Source: Candidatus Woesebacteria bacterium GW2011_GWF1_31_35 (GTDB lineage Bacteria; Patescibacteriota; Microgenomatia; UBA8517). From it: DNA of 64,000 bases. Under the pieces are notes generated by a model. The model made no database searches. It saw only the letters and a list, made by a program, of their open reading frames with translations, and was not told where the DNA came from. The translations under genes were made by a program, and so were the position numbers. Shown one piece after another: positions 50,828 to 64,000 of the stretch. The stretch is from assembly GCA_001029755.1 (NCBI GenBank), contig CP011214.1:1754-65753 (forward strand), read 5' to 3'. Each line of letters starts with the position of its first letter. Position 1 is the stretch's first letter.

Positions 50828-51088
50828 CTAACCTCTTAAAATCAATGATAGGATCATAACAAGACCTAAAATTGCAACAGCTACGTATTCTAAAATTACG
50901 GAAAGGTATATATCTTTATGAATTACATGATGAATTATTCCCCAAGAAACATATGATCCGGCTAATGCAATAGCTACTCCAATTTGAAAACTTTTATCAT
51001 ATGAGAATAAATAAAATCCTAAAACTCCTGCAAAAAATATTGCAAATAAAGAAATATAGTGAGGTATATGTTTTTTAAATGATTTCAT
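50828..51088 (-). CDS. Small 3-TM hypothetical membrane protein
   Basis: 86 aa with three hydrophobic helices; YVSWGIIHH...LEY. Confidence 0.7.
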   Translation of the reverse strand: MKSFKKHIPHYISLFAIFFAGVLGFYLFSYDKSFQIGVAIALAGSYVSWGIIHHVIHKDIYLSVILEYVAVAILGLVMILSLILRG

Positions 51089-51120: not shown

Positions 51121-52080
51121 TTATAATATTTTACCTGCTTTTAAGATTAAAATAATTGCCATAATCATACCTAAAAATGATACATGAGCAAAACTTCTGC
51201 CTGCAATTCTAGCAATACCTTTTTTTGATACAAAAAAACTATCAACCAAAAATACCACCACCAAAAGTCCCACAACACTTAAAGATATTGCCCTAGTTGT
51301 TGCAAATGGAGATATTATAAATTGTTGTATTTTTGATGTAGTAAAAATAGCCTCAACAGTAGAAACAGGTGAAGCTATTGCAATAATCGGAATTGGAGAA
51401 CTAGTTGGAGAAATAGTCGCAGCAATAGTAGGCTTTATTGTTGGTTTAATAGTTGGATTATCATTTATAGGATTGTTGGCAGCTACAGGCTGGGCAATAT
51501 TATCAACATAGGTTGATCCAAAAAATTGAACTATTATAGTTGTATCAACTCCAGCTAAATCTCCTTCAACTACCCCAATCCCAATTTCTTTGTATTTTGA
51601 ATTTAAAATATTTTCCCTATGAGTTGGGGAATTCATCCAAGCATCAACTGCAGAAGAAGCACTACTAAAGTCTCTTGCTAAATTTTCACCAGCGTATCTA
51701 TATCTATAACCAGCACTTGTAAAAAAACTCCAAGGCTGTGTTCCATCTGGAGCTATATGTGCCCAATAATCCTTTATAATCATATCATTTCCCTTAGATT
51801 GGGCAGCTACAGAAAGTGTTCCATTTAATGTTAATGAAGGTAAGCCTGCTTGGGCTCTTTTTTCGTTTGTAAGCCTTATAATTTCATCAGGTGAGATCTG
51901 GGAGGCATATCCTAAGATAGATGGACCCAATTTAGGTATAAAATTTAAAACAGCTTGGAAAAGAATAAAAAATGAGGCTAAAACTAATAAACCACTTGGA
52001 TGTAAAATTTTAGCCTTGTGGTTATTACTTGCTCGAGGCAAAAATAAATGAAGTGTTTTTTCTATAAAATCCATACACAT
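51121..52080 (-). CDS. Membrane-anchored CAP/SCP domain protein
   Basis: LTNEKR, AAQSKG.DM...YWAH, GENLA, WMNSPTHRENIL, EIGIG; Pro/Thr-rich linker; C-terminal TMs. Confidence 0.85.
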   Translation of the reverse strand: MCMDFIEKTLHLFLPRASNNHKAKILHPSGLLVLASFFILFQAVLNFIPKLGPSILGYASQISPDEIIRLTNEKRAQAGLPSLTLNGTLSVAAQSKGNDMIIKDYWAHIAPDGTQPWSFFTSAGYRYRYAGENLARDFSSASSAVDAWMNSPTHRENILNSKYKEIGIGVVEGDLAGVDTTIIVQFFGSTYVDNIAQPVAANNPINDNPTIKPTIKPTIAATISPTSSPIPIIAIASPVSTVEAIFTTSKIQQFIISPFATTRAISLSVVGLLVVVFLVDSFFVSKKGIARIAGRSFAHVSFLGMIMAIILILKAGKIL

Positions 52081-52129: not shown

Positions 52130-53509
52130 TTAGTTATTTTCAAACAAAATTGTTGGAGATGGTTCAGGACTTGGAGACGGACTTAGTGTCGGTGTTGGAA
52201 AAACTTCTGGAATAGGCGTAGGTGATGGACTTGAACTTGATTCAGATTCTACAGTTTGTGTAGAAAAAGAAGAAATTAAATCTTCTTCTGAAAGATTTGT
52301 ATATCCTGGTGTTCCATAATTATTTCCTTCAATATCCCAATATTTAGTACTATTGCAAGCAATATTTGTACAGGTATGCCATCCAGATGATAGATCACTA
52401 TTTCTTTCCATAGACTGTTCGACAGTTGCCGGCGAAGTATGTGTACCAGCAACCCATGACCCCATAGGGGTTTGGTCAATAATATTACCTGAAGCATCCT
52501 TAAGTATTAATTGCTCCCCAGGACTTTTAGTCAAATGTAGACTACTATCAATTTGATCTACTACCAATGAATGACTCAACGCAGATTTATCATCTATTGA
52601 TGCATAATGACTTAGAAGAAAATAACCATTAGCTTCAATCTTTCCATTTAAAATTATTTCGTTAGGGCCAGGACCTGCACCATAAAGTTTCCAGCCCGTT
52701 ATATCAATAACTTCATTAGTAGTATTTCTTAGTTCTATCCATTTATCTAATTCATGTACAGTTGAACCCATCCACATTATTTCATTAATAACAACACTCC
52801 CTATAACATCAGGTGTTGACCAATTACTAGTCGCTGAAAAAGTACTACCCCCAATTACAGCCACATCAGAAAAATAAGCATTTATAGGTTTGATTTGAAA
52901 AAGACCGAATCCTAATAAAAAGTAAATAAGTAACAAATCAATGGGTTTGTTTTTATGCAATTTTTCAGATTCTTCATATTTTTTTTCTACTTCTTTTTCA
53001 ATTGTCTTTTTAATATTTAATAATTCACTAATAATAATGAGAAGGGCAGGTAAAACCACCAAAAGACCAAAACCTAAAGGTTTTTTTATCCAAACAGATA
53101 AATAACCTAAAAAGGGTAAGGAAAAAATAACTTTACCTTTTATTTGAAATGAAGAAATTTCAGCAATATCTTCAATACTATTAGCATCCCCTTTTGTTTT
53201 AAAGACAGTCTCACCATTCTTCTTTTCAACTGCTACCAATCGGTGAGTAATTGATACGTTTGGATCTTCTGCTGAAATATATGTAATAATCTCTCCTTTT
53301 TTTAAAATTTCAGGATCAACTTTTTGAGTAAAAACTACTGAACCTACTTTGATTGCAGGTTCCATCGAACCGGACATGACTCTTAAAACTTGAAAGCTCT
53401 TAATTGGGTTAAAAGCAGTAAAAACCAACAATAAAACTATCGAAATCAAAACAACAGTTAATAACCATTGAAAAATATTAATTATTTTTTTTAATATATT
53501 TTTAAGCAT
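52130..53509 (-). CDS. sipW: SipW/archaeal-type signal peptidase I fused to an internal SipW-type signal peptide, lamin-tail domain and Pro/Ser/Thr tail
   Basis: VMSGSMEP, ITHRLV, TKGDAN...D (Ser/His S26B type); then LLLIYFLLGFGLFQIKPINA/YFSD; VVINEIMW...WIELRN..DITGWKL (LTD); ...GTPG..N; PSPTPIP tail. Confidence 0.85.
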   Translation of the reverse strand: MLKNILKKIINIFQWLLTVVLISIVLLLVFTAFNPIKSFQVLRVMSGSMEPAIKVGSVVFTQKVDPEILKKGEIITYISAEDPNVSITHRLVAVEKKNGETVFKTKGDANSIEDIAEISSFQIKGKVIFSLPFLGYLSVWIKKPLGFGLLVVLPALLIIISELLNIKKTIEKEVEKKYEESEKLHKNKPIDLLLIYFLLGFGLFQIKPINAYFSDVAVIGGSTFSATSNWSTPDVIGSVVINEIMWMGSTVHELDKWIELRNTTNEVIDITGWKLYGAGPGPNEIILNGKIEANGYFLLSHYASIDDKSALSHSLVVDQIDSSLHLTKSPGEQLILKDASGNIIDQTPMGSWVAGTHTSPATVEQSMERNSDLSSGWHTCTNIACNSTKYWDIEGNNYGTPGYTNLSEEDLISSFSTQTVESESSSSPSPTPIPEVFPTPTLSPSPSPEPSPTILFENN

Positions 53510-53526
53510 ATTTAAAACCTTTTATA

Positions 53527-53571
53527 AGTTACCCAAATCAGACCTATATTCTAGGCCCTTTCTGGGTAACC
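53527..53571 (-). terminator. Stem-loop between the tasA-like gene and the sipW fusion (partial terminator or mRNA stabiliser)
   Basis: gttaccca (53528-35) pairs with tgggtaac (53563-70); inner ccta/tagg stem; no clean U-tract on the minus strand. Confidence 0.55.
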
Positions 53572-53591
53572 TAAAAAACCTCAAACATAGT

Positions 53592-54227
53592 TTAAGGTGT
53601 TTGTACAAGGCCAAATACCGCATTCATGGTAACACTATCTCCTTGTATACTATTCCCTGCAGTAGTAGGAATTGACCACTCAATTTTAACACTGGCTGTT
53701 GTATTCATTTCCCCAACACTTTCACCAATCATTGGACCAAGTGTATAAGGACCATTGAATTGATCAACAGTACCATTTAAACCAGTATCTACAAAAAAAC
53801 CATTATGATCACCATCATAATAAACACGGAAATTTAAAACTCCAGCAAGATCACTCCAACCAGAAGTTCTATTTAAATCAATTGTTGCATTGCCATTAAT
53901 AGTACCATCATTCGCAATGTCTATTATTTGTACTCTAGTATCACCTGGTTTTAAATTATTTAGACCTGCCTGAGCCATAAAGTTATCATAACCTATCCCA
54001 ATTGTTGTATCCAAATAAGTTCTATAATCAGTACTAGAAATATCAAATCCATCAACCCAATTATAAGTGGCTGATCTTGGATCTTGATCTATCTTAAGAT
54101 CCATAGTTCCAGAAGAGAAAGTGGTTCCAAGAATTGACGCTGTATCACTAAAATAAGCAACTGTAGCAGTTGTTACTCCAGCGATAACCAAAGCAATCAT
54201 TGTTAGACTTAATAATATTTTTTTCAT
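53592..54227 (-). CDS. TasA/camelysin-like secreted protein with SipW-cognate signal peptide
   Basis: MKKILLSL...AGVTTATVA/YFSD...TFSSGTMDL, NLKPGD...I.NDGT, W......GNSIQGD....F.L.Q: TasA-family N- and C-terminal signatures; adjacent to sipW. Confidence 0.8.
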   Translation of the reverse strand: MKKILLSLTMIALVIAGVTTATVAYFSDTASILGTTFSSGTMDLKIDQDPRSATYNWVDGFDISSTDYRTYLDTTIGIGYDNFMAQAGLNNLKPGDTRVQIIDIANDGTINGNATIDLNRTSGWSDLAGVLNFRVYYDGDHNGFFVDTGLNGTVDQFNGPYTLGPMIGESVGEMNTTASVKIEWSIPTTAGNSIQGDSVTMNAVFGLVQTP

Positions 54228-54240
54228 GTTTTTTAATTAT

Positions 54241-54250
54241 TCACCTCCTT
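54241..54250 (-). promoter_or_regulatory. Strong Shine-Dalgarno (AAGGAGGTGA) for the tasA-like gene
   Basis: tcacctcctt on the plus strand, 13 nt from the ATG. Confidence 0.8.
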
Positions 54251-54440: not shown

Positions 54441-54965
54441 TTATTGTAATCTATATGAAATAAATTGTCTGGGTTCACCAAACATTTGAACAATTACAGT
54501 ACGTGTCTGACCATTTACTACTCCAGTTGCTAAAGCTATTCCAGTTTCTTTGTAACGATTAGAAAGAAGGTTTTGTTTATGAGTAGGTGATGCTAACCAC
54601 GCACCTATTAAAGATCCAGTATCACCATAATCTCTCCCTAAATTTTCTCCAGCTAATCTACCTCTATATCCTGTTGCTAATATAAATTTCCAAGGAGTAG
54701 CCCCAGTTGTTGGATTATTATGAGCCCAATAACCATAGGAAATTAAATCTTGTGCTTTTCGTTGTGCAGCTAAAGTTAATAAATTATTTTTCTTTAAAGC
54801 TAATTGTCCATTTTGGATACGTGTCTGATTTACTTCATTATAAACATTTTCAACAGAAAGACCTGAAGCCTTTACTAAATTGGGTATAGCTAAAAATACA
54901 AATGCAAAAATAAAAATAGCACTTGAGATAATTATGCTTTTAAAAAAGTTATTCTTGTTCATCAA
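54441..54965 (-). CDS. Secreted CAP/SCP domain protein
   Basis: Signal peptide (VKA/S); EVNQTR, AAQRKAQD...YWAH, GENLG, WLASPTHKQNLL, ETGIA, VQMFG. Confidence 0.85.
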   Translation of the reverse strand: MMNKNNFFKSIIISSAIFIFAFVFLAIPNLVKASGLSVENVYNEVNQTRIQNGQLALKKNNLLTLAAQRKAQDLISYGYWAHNNPTTGATPWKFILATGYRGRLAGENLGRDYGDTGSLIGAWLASPTHKQNLLSNRYKETGIALATGVVNGQTRTVIVQMFGEPRQFISYRLQ

Positions 54966-58457: not shown

Positions 58458-59347
58458 AAATAAAGAACTGGGAGAACAATTATTAGAGTAATAATTCCAA
58501 GTGTTATTTTAGTTCTATCCTTCGCAAATTTAACTACCTTTCCAATAATTCCATTGGGAGTTTCTGTTGCAGATGGATTATTAATAGTTTCAAGATTTGC
58601 TTCCTCACCCAACACCTGTCCAGTACCTTCTTTAGGAAGTACTGTAACCTTACCAGATCCATTTTGAGATGGAACAGGTGTTATAACTGTAACAGTTGTA
58701 CTTCCATCCCCTACTAAACTTGATGAATTATCTGCTTTATCTAAAGCTCTTAATGCATAAAAGTAAGTTTTGTTAAAATCTGGTGTATGTTCATCATAGG
58801 TCATATCAGAATTTGAAGATCCTGATATTCTAGCAATTTCATGTTGGTTATCTGCTGAAAAGTCTACAGTCTCTCCTCTATAAATAACTACTTTTGAAAA
58901 ATCAGTGTCATTAGGATTTATCCAATGAATTTTAAAATCATCACTATCAATTGTATCTTTATAATAACCAGTTACAGGTGATGGTCCTGAAATATCATAG
59001 AAAGAACTTGTTTCATCTGTAGCACCAGAAATTTCTACTTTAAAATAGTATTTTGTTTGATCACTAACTTGTGAACTTGTAACTTCAACTTGGCCAGAAG
59101 CTCCATTTATAATTGGACCTAATGTTACATAACTTCCACCCTCTTTTCTGTAATAAAACTGAGCTGAAATACTTGTTGGATCACTAGTTACTGCAGAATA
59201 TGAAAGTTTAAAATTATTTGTATTAAAGTAACTTGGAAGTTTACTTATTGAAACCTCAGGTGTTATTTCTGCAACAGCTGGTCTAACCAAAAGTCCTAGA
59301 CCTAATAATAAAGAGATTAAAAATGTTATAACTTTACTTTTTTGCAT
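58433..59347 (-). CDS. Surface protein: signal peptide, Ig/FnIII-like domains, C-terminal TM anchor
   Basis: AVA/E signal; IHWINPNDTDFSKVVIYR...YFYALRALDKADNSS (FnIII); GQVLG; TM + KRK. Confidence 0.7.
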   Translation of the reverse strand: MQKSKVITFLISLLLGLGLLVRPAVAEITPEVSISKLPSYFNTNNFKLSYSAVTSDPTSISAQFYYRKEGGSYVTLGPIINGASGQVEVTSSQVSDQTKYYFKVEISGATDETSSFYDISGPSPVTGYYKDTIDSDDFKIHWINPNDTDFSKVVIYRGETVDFSADNQHEIARISGSSNSDMTYDEHTPDFNKTYFYALRALDKADNSSSLVGDGSTTVTVITPVPSQNGSGKVTVLPKEGTGQVLGEEANLETINNPSATETPNGIIGKVVKFAKDRTKITLGIITLIIVLPVLYFYFLSKRK

Positions 59348-62300
59348 ATTTTCTATTTATATAAATCCCTATACCCAACATTGTAAGTGCCATTATAATC
59401 CATAGAGTATCACTTCCTGTATCGGGTAATTCTATAGAAGCTCCTAAAACTTGTCCCAATAGATTTCCACCATAACCTATTCCTGTTCCTATAACTACAC
59501 TTGAATTAGCTACATTACATTCAATAGTTTCTAAACTTTCTTCTCTTTCTTCTGACCCAATTGTTCCTTTACAAGTTGCAAAGTTTTTATATGATGATCC
59601 TTGAAATACACTTGATAACACTTTTGCTTTGTAGGTAATTTTAATTTCCTGACCACTTATTATGTCTCCAATACTCCATTTCAAAACGCCTGAGGTTATT
59701 GTCGGATCTGAGGTTGACACATCATTTATTAAGCTAGATCCTGAAACATATTCAAAACCACCAGGTAAAATATCAATTACTTCCAAGTTATTAATTGTTA
59801 CATTACCAGTATTTTTAACTTTTAAAGTATAAATTACTTCATCGCCAATTCTTGCTCCAAATAATTTATCATTACTTTTTTCAATCTTAACCTCTTTTGA
59901 TGGTACAAATCCAAAATCTGCTGCATCAAAGTTTGCCCCAGAGACAACTGCAATTGGACCATATGGATCGGTTGTAGTTGGTGCATATCCTGTAGGTACT
60001 GTTAAATCAACAACATCAACCCAATAATTACCTGGTAAAAGATTGGTAAATAGATATATACCTGATCCATCCGTTGTAGTTGATCCTACTAATATATCAG
60101 CCTCACCTAAATCTTGAATTCCATCACCATTATCTAAATAAAGATCAGTCTGAACTCCAGAAATTCCAGGTTCTCCAACATCTTGAATTCCATTACCATT
60201 ATAATCAGTCCAAACAAAGTCTCCAATTTCTGCAAGTTTGAAATTACCAAAATTTTGCACTACATTGTTATTATTTTGAGGTACATTAACAAAGTGACAA
60301 TTAGGATCTGTTGGATATGTTTGTGTCCAACCTGTCTTTAATTCCTCACAAACTTTATATGTAGCTGGGAATAGATGATTAAACCAATACCATCCTAAAT
60401 CAGAGCCAATAGTTGTGTCAGTTGTGGTTGTTTTTACTAACTTTGTATAATCGTTTGTCCCATTATCCCAACCATATAAATTAATAGCCCAATTACCAAG
60501 TGGATTGTCATCAATATTTTCAATTCCATTTCCATCTTTATCTTCCCATTTATATCCGTGAATTGAACCATTTGGAGTATTTATAAATGTACAAATTATA
60601 GTTTCACCTTCTCCTAGAATTATTCCATTTACACTATCTAAATTATCATATGTACCTTTAAAAGTTTCTCCTAATTTACAATAAGCGGTAACTAAATCGT
60701 ATCCATCTTGTTTAGATTCAATTGCCAAATATTCTCCAGTTTTAATATCATCAGTTATATTTTCTCCATTCAAATCAGTTGTAAGTGGAGATGGATCTTC
60801 TGTGTCAGTACTGTTTCCATTTATATCAATAACCCAACCAACACCCGGTGTTTGATCTGAAGTAGTAGTAATATAACCATCTTCATCAATAATTTTCTTT
60901 ACTTCAATTTTTCCTAAATCTCTCGTATTTGTAACTGTACAAGTTTTATTTTCTCCCAAAGCTATGGATCCATCGCAATCATCTGAGAATGATGATGTAT
61001 ATCCTGTGACAACATCCTCGGAAACAATATAACTTCCTACATCCAAAGAAGCTGTTGTTCCAGCTGAAGATCCTGGGAAAGAATCCTCACTTACATTGTC
61101 TCCATCTATATACATTGTAAAGTCGCCAGATACTTTTGCACTACTTCCTACAACATTTTTGACAACTGTTAAATGTGGAGTTTTGTCATCATTATGAATT
61201 GTACAAGTAACATTTTCTCCTTCATCTAGTGTTAAACTTCCACCTAATACACTAGGACACTTACTATCACCTGTAATATTTACAAAATTATATCCTTCCA
61301 AAACTGTCTCATTTAGAGAGATTGAAGTATTAGCATCAACTGTAGTTGTGGATCCTGAAAGTACCAAATTTCCTCCAACCATTAAACTAAAATCATCTGG
61401 ATTTGCGTCCCCACCATTGTCATTTGTTACATCTTTAATAAGTGTAATTGTTGGGGCTATATCATTATTAGTTATCGTGCATGTTGCAGTTCCACCATTT
61501 GGAATAACTACATCAGTACAGTTATTATATCCGGTTGAATATCCTGAAACTGATGGCTCAACTACTGAATATGTTCCGGCATTAACATTTAAATCATTCT
61601 GACCGTCAGATTCAAATGCAACAGCTGTTCCACCATTTACTTTAAATGTAAAATTACCATATGTTTCATTTCCACCATTATCTTTTACGAGAACTTTTTT
61701 AACAATTAAGGTAGCTGATTGATCATCATTTGTAATAGTACAAGTTACATTACTATTAGCAGAAAGGGTTAAATTATCATTTACTAAATTTCCACCAGTA
61801 CATGACCAAGAACTTGCAGAATATCCAACTGGACCTGATTCTGAAAGAGAATATTGTTTATTTGCTAAAATTTTACCAGTAATTGAAGGTCCATTTCCTT
61901 GAACTTTTAATGAGTTAGAATCATATATTGCAGAGAGTTCCCAATCAGAAGGTTCTTTGGTTCCACCACTATTATTGTTTACAACTTTTTCTAAAGTTAA
62001 AGTTGCTGTGTCAATTGCATTACAAAGAGTAATGTTAGTATCAACATCTTTATTTACTGTGACTGTTACGGGAAGCGTAATTCCTTCAGGAGTATTACAA
62101 GAATATCCTGTACTCCCTGTAGTAAACCATCCAACAAAATGATAATCAGAAACATCATCATTCTCGGTAACAGTGTGGGTTACTCCAGTTATAGTAGTTT
62201 CAATGCCACTTACAGTAGAGCCCATGCTATACGCTTGACTTGTGTCAACTTTAAAAGAAAAACCTAAAGTATTAGCTTGACTATTACCACCTTCAAATGT

Positions 62301-64000
62301 GTTGTCTCCATCACTATCAACTTTTTTATTAACTGTTACACTTCCAGTATCTCGAGTATTTGTAAATGTACAAGTTCCACCACTTTCTGTAACATCTAAA
62401 GAAGCAGTTGAACCTACAAATGTAGGACAAACTCCACCAGTTGAAGTTAATGTGTATCCTAATACAGAACTTGTTTCCTCAACTGTATATGATCCTGTAT
62501 TAAGTAAGGCACTATCTTCATCATGTAAACCACCTTGAACAAGATTTGTTATATTTTTGAAAATTGTAAATGTCCAATCAGAATCATTTGCAGTGCCTCC
62601 AATAAATATTTTATCAAAGAAAATATTCCCTGTTTTTCGAGTATTGTAGATTGTACAAGTAACATTATCTCCTGCAGAAAGATTTACTTCTCCATTAGCA
62701 CAATTTGAAGAATATGATATGTTGTAATCAGAAAGGCTTGTATCAGTTCCGGCAGTTTCACTAACTTGATATTGACCGGCGTTTAATATTAATGATCCTG
62801 TTGTACCTCCATCACCAACATTGGAAGCATAAACAGTAGATCCTATTAGAAGATTGAATTTACCAGGATCATTTGATGGAGTTAAATCTTTTATCACAGT
62901 TAATTTTGGATATTTAAAATTATTGAATGTACAAGTTACTGTTTCTCCCAAAGAAAGTGAAATATTATTAATAGAACTACCATCATTACAGGTTGCTGAT
63001 GTTAAATCCCAACCAGTGAGTTCATCTTCAACCAATGAATAATTCCCCGCTGAGAGTGGGCCACTATCATATGGTGTATCTAAATCATTTAATTGAAATG
63101 AATCAACTAAATTAGTAGATTTTGAGAGTGTAAAATCAAATTTTTGAGGATCTTCCAAAGGATTTGTCACTTTATCTACAATTATTTTTCCTGGAATATC
63201 ATCATTTGTAATAGTACAAATAATATCTTGTCCAGGATTTAAAGTAACTGTTCCACCAAGACTAGTTGGGCAACCAGTTCCTGCAATAGAAGTGAAAGAA
63301 TAACCAGCAAGTCCTGCCTCATTAATAGCATATTCCTTATTTGCATCAACTGAATACTTTTGTCCAGAATTTGCAGCTACCCCACCAATAGTTAGACCAA
63401 AATCATTAACTCCTGCAGTTCCACCATTATCTTTAATTACATTTTTAATTAAAGTAATAGTTGGGGCAATATCATCATTTGTAATAGTGCATGATTTAGT
63501 ATCTCCTAATCCAAGAGTGATTGATCCATTAGAAGCACAATTACCACTAATTGTCCCTGTATATCCTTCCTGATCTGTTTCAGAAATAATATAGGTACCT
63601 ACATTAAATCCATTTTCAATTCCACTTATTACACCAGTGTTATCAACAAAAAGTGGGAAATCACTAATTTCTTTGTTTCCACCATTGTCATTAACAACAA
63701 CTTTTATAACCGTCAATTTTGGTTGAATGTCGTTATTTGTAATAGTACAAGTTGTTATTTGATCAGTAACCACAGTAACATTTGTACAATTATCATAAGT
63801 AGTTGCATAACCAGAAACACCCGGTTCAATCACACTATAAGTTCCAGGAACAACTGTTAAATCATTTGTTCCACCTGTTTCAAATGCAATTAAACTTCCT
63901 CCATTTACTTGGAATGAAAAATCAGAGGCAACTTTTGTACCCCCGTTATTATTATTAACCACTTTAGTAACTCTAAGTGTTCCTTGACTATGTTTATTGT
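59334..64000 (-). CDS. Giant repeat adhesin (SpaA/prealbumin-like CnaB repeats, SdrD-B domains, DUF11, LPxTG-type anchor); 5' end outside window
   Basis: Frame is open to the window end. At least 12 ~85-aa repeats (TxxK...Y.v.E...GY...C...CTITN), 2 SdrD-B-like domains (IGDFVWTDYNGNGIQD), DUF11 (GDEVIYTLKVKNTG..DILPGGF), then LPDTG-TM-RKYAKK. Confidence 0.85.
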   Translation of the reverse strand, partial: NKHSQGTLRVTKVVNNNNGGTKVASDFSFQVNGGSLIAFETGGTNDLTVVPGTYSVIEPGVSGYATTYDNCTNVTVVTDQITTCTITNNDIQPKLTVIKVVVNDNGGNKEISDFPLFVDNTGVISGIENGFNVGTYIISETDQEGYTGTISGNCASNGSITLGLGDTKSCTITNDDIAPTITLIKNVIKDNGGTAGVNDFGLTIGGVAANSGQKYSVDANKEYAINEAGLAGYSFTSIAGTGCPTSLGGTVTLNPGQDIICTITNDDIPGKIIVDKVTNPLEDPQKFDFTLSKSTNLVDSFQLNDLDTPYDSGPLSAGNYSLVEDELTGWDLTSATCNDGSSINNISLSLGETVTCTFNNFKYPKLTVIKDLTPSNDPGKFNLLIGSTVYASNVGDGGTTGSLILNAGQYQVSETAGTDTSLSDYNISYSSNCANGEVNLSAGDNVTCTIYNTRKTGNIFFDKIFIGGTANDSDWTFTIFKNITNLVQGGLHDEDSALLNTGSYTVEETSSVLGYTLTSTGGVCPTFVGSTASLDVTESGGTCTFTNTRDTGSVTVNKKVDSDGDNTFEGGNSQANTLGFSFKVDTSQAYSMGSTVSGIETTITGVTHTVTENDDVSDYHFVGWFTTGSTGYSCNTPEGITLPVTVTVNKDVDTNITLCNAIDTATLTLEKVVNNNSGGTKEPSDWELSAIYDSNSLKVQGNGPSITGKILANKQYSLSESGPVGYSASSWSCTGGNLVNDNLTLSANSNVTCTITNDDQSATLIVKKVLVKDNGGNETYGNFTFKVNGGTAVAFESDGQNDLNVNAGTYSVVEPSVSGYSTGYNNCTDVVIPNGGTATCTITNNDIAPTITLIKDVTNDNGGDANPDDFSLMVGGNLVLSGSTTTVDANTSISLNETVLEGYNFVNITGDSKCPSVLGGSLTLDEGENVTCTIHNDDKTPHLTVVKNVVGSSAKVSGDFTMYIDGDNVSEDSFPGSSAGTTASLDVGSYIVSEDVVTGYTSSFSDDCDGSIALGENKTCTVTNTRDLGKIEVKKIIDEDGYITTTSDQTPGVGWVIDINGNSTDTEDPSPLTTDLNGENITDDIKTGEYLAIESKQDGYDLVTAYCKLGETFKGTYDNLDSVNGIILGEGETIICTFINTPNGSIHGYKWEDKDGNGIENIDDNPLGNWAINLYGWDNGTNDYTKLVKTTTTDTTIGSDLGWYWFNHLFPATYKVCEELKTGWTQTYPTDPNCHFVNVPQNNNNVVQNFGNFKLAEIGDFVWTDYNGNGIQDVGEPGISGVQTDLYLDNGDGIQDLGEADILVGSTTTDGSGIYLFTNLLPGNYWVDVVDLTVPTGYAPTTTDPYGPIAVVSGANFDAADFGFVPSKEVKIEKSNDKLFGARIGDEVIYTLKVKNTGNVTINNLEVIDILPGGFEYVSGSSLINDVSTSDPTITSGVLKWSIGDIISGQEIKITYKAKVLSSVFQGSSYKNFATCKGTIGSEEREESLETIECNVANSSVVIGTGIGYGGNLLGQVLGASIELPDTGSDTLWIIMALTMLGIGIYINRKYAKK

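Follow-up and report, generated by a model that had tools for sequence, protein, structure and literature searches.

The locus lies on the minus strand of the window (the whole 64,000-nucleotide stretch of DNA analysed), which belongs to an ultra-small groundwater bacterium with a single-contig, 97% complete genome. It consists of a TasA-like gene and, downstream of it, a gene in which a SipW-type peptidase is continuous with a second, predicted exported half. Its features are as follows.

54240..54249 (-): strong Shine-Dalgarno-like sequence before tasA, by direct reading of the sequence
53592..54227 (-): TasA-superfamily major subunit, 211 aa, signal peptide at residues 1-24
54111-54155 (-): predicted donor strand of the 211-aa protein, residues 25-39
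53510..53598 (-): spacer between tasA and sipW, containing a strong hairpin and, at 53598-53578, a terminator-like site
52130..53509 (-): fusion gene, 459 aa (SipW-type peptidase, internal signal peptide, donor strand, lamin-tail domain [LTD] and P/S/T tail)
53411..53482 (-): peptidase TM1, about residues 10-33, from hydropathy and an AF2 helix at 2-32
53105..53401 (-): catalytic domain, residues 37-135, matching TIGR02228; best PDB matches SEC11C/SEC11A
53366-53368 (-): catalytic S48, invariant in 76/76 aligned rows
53243-53245 (-): catalytic H89, invariant in 76/76 aligned rows
53186-53188 (-): catalytic D108, invariant in 76/76 aligned rows
53168-53170 (-): catalytic D114, invariant in 76/76 aligned rows
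53018..53080 (-): TM2, about residues 144-164, from hydropathy and the AF2 model
52940..53017 (-): charged linker, residues 165-190, with 8 K/R and 6 D/E, predicted to be cytoplasmic and to act as n-region
52877..52939 (-): h- and c-region of the internal signal peptide, residues 191-211, with a predicted cut after A211
52832..52876 (-): predicted donor strand, residues 212-226, 10/15 identical to the TasA-like strand
52295..52804 (-): lamin-tail (Ig-like) domain, residues 236 to about 405, by PF00932 and Foldseek matches to lamin Ig folds
52133..52264 (-): low-complexity P/S/T/E tail without a TM helix, the C terminus of the fusion

The preliminary description of this DNA had taken the 459-aa ORF for a Ser/His SipW-type peptidase followed by a membrane helix, a charged linker, a second hydrophobic stretch, a lamin-tail domain and a P/S/T tail, and each part of this anatomy was borne out. 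In profile searches, TIGR02228 matched residues 10-162 with 113.8 bits (cut-off 51.85) and the LTD model PF00932 matched residues 236-347 with 48.9 bits (cut-off 34.3), while the score against the Bacillus SipW equivalog NF046067 (105.9 bits) fell below its cut-off of 190. By hydropathy three stretches are hydrophobic (about residues 8-36, 143-166 and 189-206), and an AF2 model built with 76 sequences placed helices at 2-32, 144-181 and 191-204 beside two well-folded domains (pTM 0.49). Residues 209-233 were disordered (pLDDT below 50) and lay outside the LTD in this monomer model, which is silent on cis geometry. The best Foldseek matches were human SEC11C/A, with lamin Ig folds for the second half, which we call the cargo. 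S48, H89, D108 and D114 align to the SEC11 motifs, with His replacing Lys in the catalytic set. The alignment in which they are invariant (A1; 76 rows, being the query and 75 of the 120 matches listed) left out LTD-only, identical, N-terminally incomplete and long-insert matches; the four residues were also invariant in 58 of 58 fused peptidase domains. From its sequence, then, the peptidase half is of the SipW/SEC11 type with an intact Ser-His-Asp-Asp set and is predicted to be active. We infer from its position that TM2 is the equivalent of the SEC11 C-terminal (CTS) helix.

The adjacent protein had been called TasA-like, and this too held. PF12389 matched it above cut-off (31.4 bits), over residues 2-48 only. 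A profile of its 50-member family found AbpX (9SJ2/9RHP) and TasA (5OF1/8AUR) with E values from 1.6e-9 to 1.1e-6; the lowest was that of AbpX, and profile positions 31-191 matched both 5OF1 and 8AUR at about 1e-6. Its Atlas neighbours were camelysin-domain clusters, at TM scores of 0.61-0.71 for an Atlas model with a pLDDT of 0.63. Against the Bacillus TasA equivalog NF046066 it scored 19.6 bits, far below the cut-off of 450. These matches assign the 211-aa protein to the TasA superfamily without making it the Bacillus TasA equivalog.

The hairpin between tasA and sipW has a folding energy of -32.5 kcal/mol (z -5.9). Such a hairpin followed tasA in 50 of 77 loci; of the 77 controls, all taken inside genes, 5 had one. 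The spacer is predicted to act as an expression step-down, and we infer that the hairpin fits an abundant shaft with scarce enzyme and cargo. A promoter scan gave results at chance level (16 versus 17.5).

A SipW-cognate signal peptide had also been proposed inside the fusion. The curated model for such signals, TIGR04088, had no match anywhere in the 459-aa protein, and on the TasA-like N terminus it gave 17.4 bits, below its cut-off of 19. Because the curated model misses the internal site, we trained a lineage-specific HMM on 149 N-terminal signal peptides, all of them from non-fused neighbours in other genomes. By this HMM the internal site ranked second among the 1071 ORFs of the genome, with 17.0 bits (TasA, 54.0; next, 10.7), and a position matrix run over 670 proteins scored no other internal site as high (26.1; next, 12.3). 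The site shows the h-region, small P1, aromatic P1'/P2' and acidic +4 residue of the lineage-specific profile. The proposal thus stands on the lineage HMM and the position matrix, although TIGR04088 is silent.

Comparison across relatives agreed with a processed site in most respects. P1 was A, S, T or G in 76/76 rows of A1, and conservation was 0.53 over the strand versus 0.35 in the linker, 0.34 in the h-region and 0.35 in the spacer after the strand. Phe occupies P2' at this site, as it does in 32 of 43 fusions; the linkers of the 43 range from 11 to 51 aa. P3 is Ile here and Thr/Ser in most, which counts against processing. LepB is reported to cut aromatic P2' poorly, and its block for TasA has been placed, in the available part of the same source (PMC10269814), on a P2 Trp; that residue is absent at the internal site here, which counts against the LepB-exclusion argument.

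The internal strand and the predicted N-terminal strand of the neighbour are identical at 10 of 15 residues. The same codon is used at 5 of those 10, and 27 of 45 nucleotides are identical. Since the codons differ between the two strands, the likeness is at the protein level, and a recent DNA duplication of the strand was ruled out. The preliminary description had called the two N termini nearly the same, which amounts to 10/15 residues and 5 shared codons; the resemblance is above chance. The motif positions given there, 52865-52879 and 54144-54158, do contain the sites but span only A/YFSD; the full motifs occupy 52832-52879 and 54111-54158.

We looked across the class Microgenomatia for the same arrangement. 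TIGR02228 had a match in 103 of 251 genomes, a tally that includes the source genome and one unpublished genome (G068) used for the tally alone; at a stricter threshold across the phylum, 53 of 301 genomes had one. About 6 kb on either side of the class matches was taken for locus comparison, and twenty-odd weak S26-like proteins, which scored below 70 bits on our own SipW profile, were dropped before counting. The retained set comprised 103 SipW ORFs from 90 genomes, 52 long and 51 short. Among the long ORFs, 36 had an internal site above the null, 1 more was recognized by HMM, 13 had diverged sites (a class judged by eye) and 2 were not fusions. There were therefore 37 clear fusions among 103 SipW genes, in 37 genomes of 17 families; adding the diverged ones gives 50 genomes and 21 of 29 families. 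Seven of 14 long SipW ORFs from other classes were also above the null. The closest relatives among the matches listed carried the Atlas labels Microgenomates/Woesebacteria. Beyond Patescibacteria the comparison covered 25 plasmid-collection records, no one of which matched over 80% of residues 1-230; the 5 inspected were unfused.

On a quick tree of 122 peptidase domains, in which 18 of 119 branches had support of 95 or more, the fused state requires 15 changes, at least 3 of them forced by well-supported branches. Fused and split forms occur in similar numbers and have changed into one another several times. The fusion is optional: about half of the SipW genes are unfused, so it is not needed. 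The preliminary description had proposed a search of other CPR genomes for the fusion beside a TasA neighbour, and had allowed that homologues might always be split; the fusion was found elsewhere, conserved beside tasA, and the homologues are not always split.

The order of genes around the split forms points to what was fused. The usual order is tasA, sipW, a cargo gene with signal and strand, and a fourth gene, which has an ordinary signal and is TasA-like but lacks the donor strand. After a split sipW, which overlaps the next gene in 37 of 51 loci, a protein with signal and strand came next in 39/51 and the strand-less gene then followed in 22/51; after a fused sipW, the strand-less TasA-like gene came next in 30 of 37 loci. 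These positions identify the fused tail as the third gene of the operon, the cargo. Cargo strands also resembled the TasA strand of their own locus: in 31 fused loci the BLOSUM score was 43.9 versus 32.4 +/-1.5 when shuffled, with 0 of 5000 shuffles as high, although this test overstates independence because kin share strands. With one fused locus per family (n=15) the values were 47.5 versus 36.1, and in 33 split loci 33.0 versus 17.4. Operon position, strand and P1 together give comparative support to the earlier view that the enzyme is joined in one chain to a substrate of the SipW type.

Fused cargos are diverse. They range from 28 to 944 aa, some with FN3, Big_13 or RTX repeats; an LTD was found in 20/36, a TasA body in 2/36 and a TM helix in 0/36. 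A C-terminal TM helix was present in 18 of 56 fourth genes. In L096 the strand directly follows the catalytic domain, without TM2 or h-region. In L189 SipW is joined to a fourth-gene-type protein instead of cargo, which suggests that any next gene can fuse. The junction between sipW and the next gene appears to be the only one in the operon at which fusion keeps topology. If so, fusion would recur without needing a special advantage, and L189 fits this.

The part assigned to the cargo in the preliminary description was that of a TapA-like primer or tip adhesin. A TasA-like donor strand that co-varies within the locus is consistent with this, but the body is an LTD, and a TapA family domain is absent from the cargo: Pfam found the LTD only, the NCBIfam TapA model had no match and Foldseek returned lamin Ig folds. 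The cargo may work like TapA without being a member of its family.

We give a probability of roughly 0.6 to the reading that the fusion is a polyprotein which processes itself and so frees the subunit that forms the tip of a TasA-type fibre or initiates it. TM1 would run in to out, leaving the catalytic domain outside; TM2 would return out to in, the linker would be cytoplasmic and the h-region would again run in to out. With this topology the cut site would face the active site, and the linker would let the internal h-region occupy the substrate-binding place of a signal peptide. In the SEC11A-substrate structure, as reported, the h-region of the signal is packed against TM1 and the CTS helix (PMC13385932). 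SipW, rather than the two LepB-like peptidases of the genome, would cut after A211, in cis or via a sister copy, and free a 248-aa end subunit. Its new N terminus would donate its strand to the first TasA-like subunit, so that the cargo would cap or start the fibre. Lacking an acceptor domain, the cargo could sit only at one fibre end, probably the distal tip. The same enzyme would mature the far more abundant TasA-like precursors. Against tip placement count the model of the CPR Pam pilus, in which, in the text available, a donor-only protein is the base terminator (PMC13278184), and the low proportion of fourth genes with a C-terminal TM helix (18 of 56), which leave the polarity unsettled.

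The fusion would hard-wire a coupling that split operons gain from gene overlap. The preliminary description had proposed a 1:1 stoichiometry of enzyme and primer. This is not peculiar to the fusion: split loci, in which the two genes usually overlap, are already coupled in translation, so that a coupling near 1:1 is ancestral.

A possible but doubtful alternative to the self-processing tip is that coupled genes fused neutrally: the chain would be cut, but the cargo would be a soluble chaperone or matrix protein that aids assembly and does not remain in the fibre, as has been proposed for TapA. The repeated fused/split changes on the tree (at least 3, up to 15), the overlap of most split sipW genes with the next gene, the joining of SipW to another kind of protein in L189 and the cargos of only 28 aa in some loci all fit such a history, and TapA is reported to be dynamic in NMR while filaments grow (PMC10151520). 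However, cargo is often large, with variable Ig/FN3/LTD/RTX domains typical of exposed tips, and the C-terminal TM helices of fourth genes imply a directed order from tip to anchor, as in the Tafi model.

It is unlikely that the fusion stays uncut, as a three-TM SipW whose LTD is a permanent extracellular substrate-binding accessory and whose strand is a relic. Fusions of signal peptidase to DUF5305 have been reported (10.64898/2026.01.04.697558; PMC11821415), and both L096 and the 13 fusions with diverged sites would suit such an enzyme. Yet P1 is small in every row of A1, conservation is higher over the strand than on either side of it, and the strand co-varies with the TasA of its locus. 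One additional N-terminal residue is reported to block B. subtilis TasA fibres, and a TasA whose N terminus is blocked cannot donate (10.1101/188995).

It seems very improbable that translation of the cargo begins independently, at a start codon inside the linker, with the read-through chain incidental. There is an in-frame TTG (L184) just before the h-region here, and in 13 of 43 fusions an ATG lies no more than 20 codons from the h-region, but a start codon with an SD-like motif occurs in only 3/43. Such a motif is absent before the TTG here, whereas tasA has a strong one. Finally, an assembly or sequencing error joining two genes is ruled out by the recurrence of clear fusions in other genomes and by the contigs of 4 runs, which show zero substitutions and zero indels (a stop or frameshift in the linker being what the preliminary description had named as evidence against the fusion); X17, X19 and X20, runs unmarked as possible sources, each bridge linker and site.

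Within the self-processing reading, the fusion might also serve as an ordering device, the tethered tip being cut in cis before TasA precursors enter the substrate window. We regard this extension as tentative and rather unlikely.

The locus in this genome differs from its relatives by a missing gene. A profile search of the whole genome found no fourth gene; the best non-TasA match reached 14.6 bits, whereas top-scoring fourth-gene-type proteins in held-out loci reached 55-242 bits. This match, G000:C1:417129-418043, covered the N terminus only and was rejected as the fourth gene. In L033, L035 and L036, which are close loci, the fourth gene comes after the fusion, and orthologues of the CAP gene and the 86-aa gene of the window come next, directly or within two genes. 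In the window the CAP gene begins 49 bp after the fusion with no fourth gene intervening. The simplest reading is that the anchor gene has been lost, and the locus here may be reduced or decaying. The fusion beside tasA is conserved, but the two-gene unit looks reduced because the usual fourth gene is absent. The fibre here would then be released or held in some other way.

Several characterized systems share parts with this one. Like this locus, B. subtilis tapA-sipW-tasA (8AUR, 5OF1) sets a Ser/His SipW-type peptidase beside a TasA-family subunit, and, in the accounts available, has a minor protein with a TasA-like N-terminal strand and a sipW coupled in translation to the minor gene. The tapA gene is reported to overlap sipW, and TapA, which like SipW is of low abundance, has been proposed as donor of the first strand (PMC9674648, PMC10151520). 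In B. subtilis, however, the minor protein is separate and has a TapA domain, whereas here an LTD body lies downstream in the SipW chain, and Microgenomatia relatives carry the extra strand-less TasA-like gene.

Haloarchaeal Tafi (TafA/E shaft, TafC tip, TafD peptidase, TafF anchor) has, as described, the same parts as the four-gene Microgenomatia operon: a dedicated peptidase, a shaft, a variable initiating tip and a terminating acceptor with membrane helices, as modelled in the Tafi papers. In that model the tip initiates and a TM-anchored acceptor terminates, and unanchored chains are suggested to be released (PMC11821415, PMC12337348). Tafi differs in its Tat export and in a peptidase separate from the tip (PMC11821415, PMC12337348); at our locus no DUF5305 partner was seen, and the anchor gene is missing from the source genome.

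The Pyrodictium AbpX and Pyrobaculum AbpA/AbpB filaments (9SJ2, 9RHP) include in AbpX the best profile match of the 211-aa family. Their donor strand is reported to have an aromatic residue 2 and an acidic residue 4, as here, and AbpB has been proposed as an initiator with adhesin domains (10.64898/2026.01.04.697558, PMC9245690); the peptidase fusions reported there join the accessory DUF5305 rather than a substrate. Eukaryotic SEC11A/C (7P2P, 7P2Q, 9RJB; PMC13385932), the closest solved structure to the peptidase half, is described with two membrane helices flanking the signal peptide, as here, but works in a multi-subunit complex on separate substrates only. The Pam pilus is a donor-strand pilus from the same superphylum but differs, in the published account as available, in its membrane-anchored chaperones and its acceptor-only tip subunit; the available part of that text names neither TasA nor SipW nor any signal peptidase (PMC13278184). 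TasA homologues in Patescibacteria appeared only as a Pfam distribution in the available part of PMC9245690.

No signal peptidase fused to its own substrate was found in the literature searched, which largely excluded subscription journals and did not extend to supplements. Within that literature the earlier statement that the fusion was not known to have been described was borne out, the known fusions, in the sources as available, being of the DUF5305 type. The fibre system is thus of a known type, and the fusion is real, widespread and apparently undescribed.

Surface structures of Microgenomatia are thought to mediate host contact. The present findings suggest that a large share of the class carries a TasA-type fimbria whose tips vary. 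The fusion offers a natural one-gene test of the coupling between SipW, primer and TasA, hinted at in Bacillus only by the tapA/sipW overlap, and with a peptidase that carries its own substrate, cleavage in cis can be told directly from cleavage in trans by experiment. Were the fusion an ordering device, the primer would be the first product at each assembly site and each fibre would start with exactly one variable tip; the stub of signal left behind might then gate later turnover. Roughly a fifth of Microgenomatia genomes would in that case encode a third type of pilus, a fimbria timed by its protease and free of chaperones.

The peptidase of the fusion (window 52130-53509, minus strand) clustered in a quick tree of 122 peptidase domains with the copies from G111 and G152, two genomes of other families (support 88), and not with the sampled members of its own family. 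Because of this grouping, the sequences hint that the cassette has moved laterally.

Unusual forms of SipW were found in two relatives.

L096:5983-7722 (genome G024), SipW with a strand-like motif
L189:4887-6215 (genome G355), SipW joined in one chain to a protein of the fourth-gene type

In the first, the strand-like motif follows the catalytic domain immediately, with neither TM2 nor an h-region, and the protein is possibly a permanently tethered or degenerate form. The partner in the second has a TasA-like body and an ordinary signal and lacks a donor strand; the cargo gene was absent from this locus. Six further loci (L090, L108, L112, L119, L128, and L137) have two sipW genes flanking a substrate of ~190 aa, whose predicted strand starts with Asp rather than an aromatic residue. 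The P1' preference of the second peptidase might differ there.

We also noted other genes in the genome carrying the fusion.

Window 50828-51088, 86-aa membrane protein gene
Window 51121-52080, CAP-domain gene
Window 54441-54965, second CAP gene, upstream
Window 59334-63962, gene for a large surface protein that contains SpaA-type, SdrD-B, and DUF11 domains and ends in an LPxTG-like motif
Window 1211-44243, extended series of genes for glycosyltransferases and multi-TM transferase-like proteins
G000:C1:417129-418043, 304-aa secreted protein with a C-terminal anchor

Of the 113 Microgenomatia loci, 23 have a CAP orthologue no more than 6 kb from sipW. Speculatively, the products of the transferase series could act on the cargo, adding glycans to its P/S/T tail. 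The 304-aa protein matched the fourth-gene profile weakly and only N-terminally, and probably belongs to a different pilus locus.

Outside the class, two counterparts were identified.

L224:1282-6750 (Acetoanaerobium noterae), sipW and TasA-like locus
L223:3217-5544 (Miltoncostaea oceani plasmid), split tasA, sipW, and secreted gene

Judging from translations, the former comprises an adhesin-like gene, sipW, two TasA-like genes, and a strand-less LPXTG-type anchor gene, a Bacillota counterpart of the tip/shaft/anchor layout. On the plasmid, the secreted gene overlaps sipW and gene order is as in split tasA-sipW loci; M. oceani being a cultured actinobacterium, this locus is a possible tractable model.
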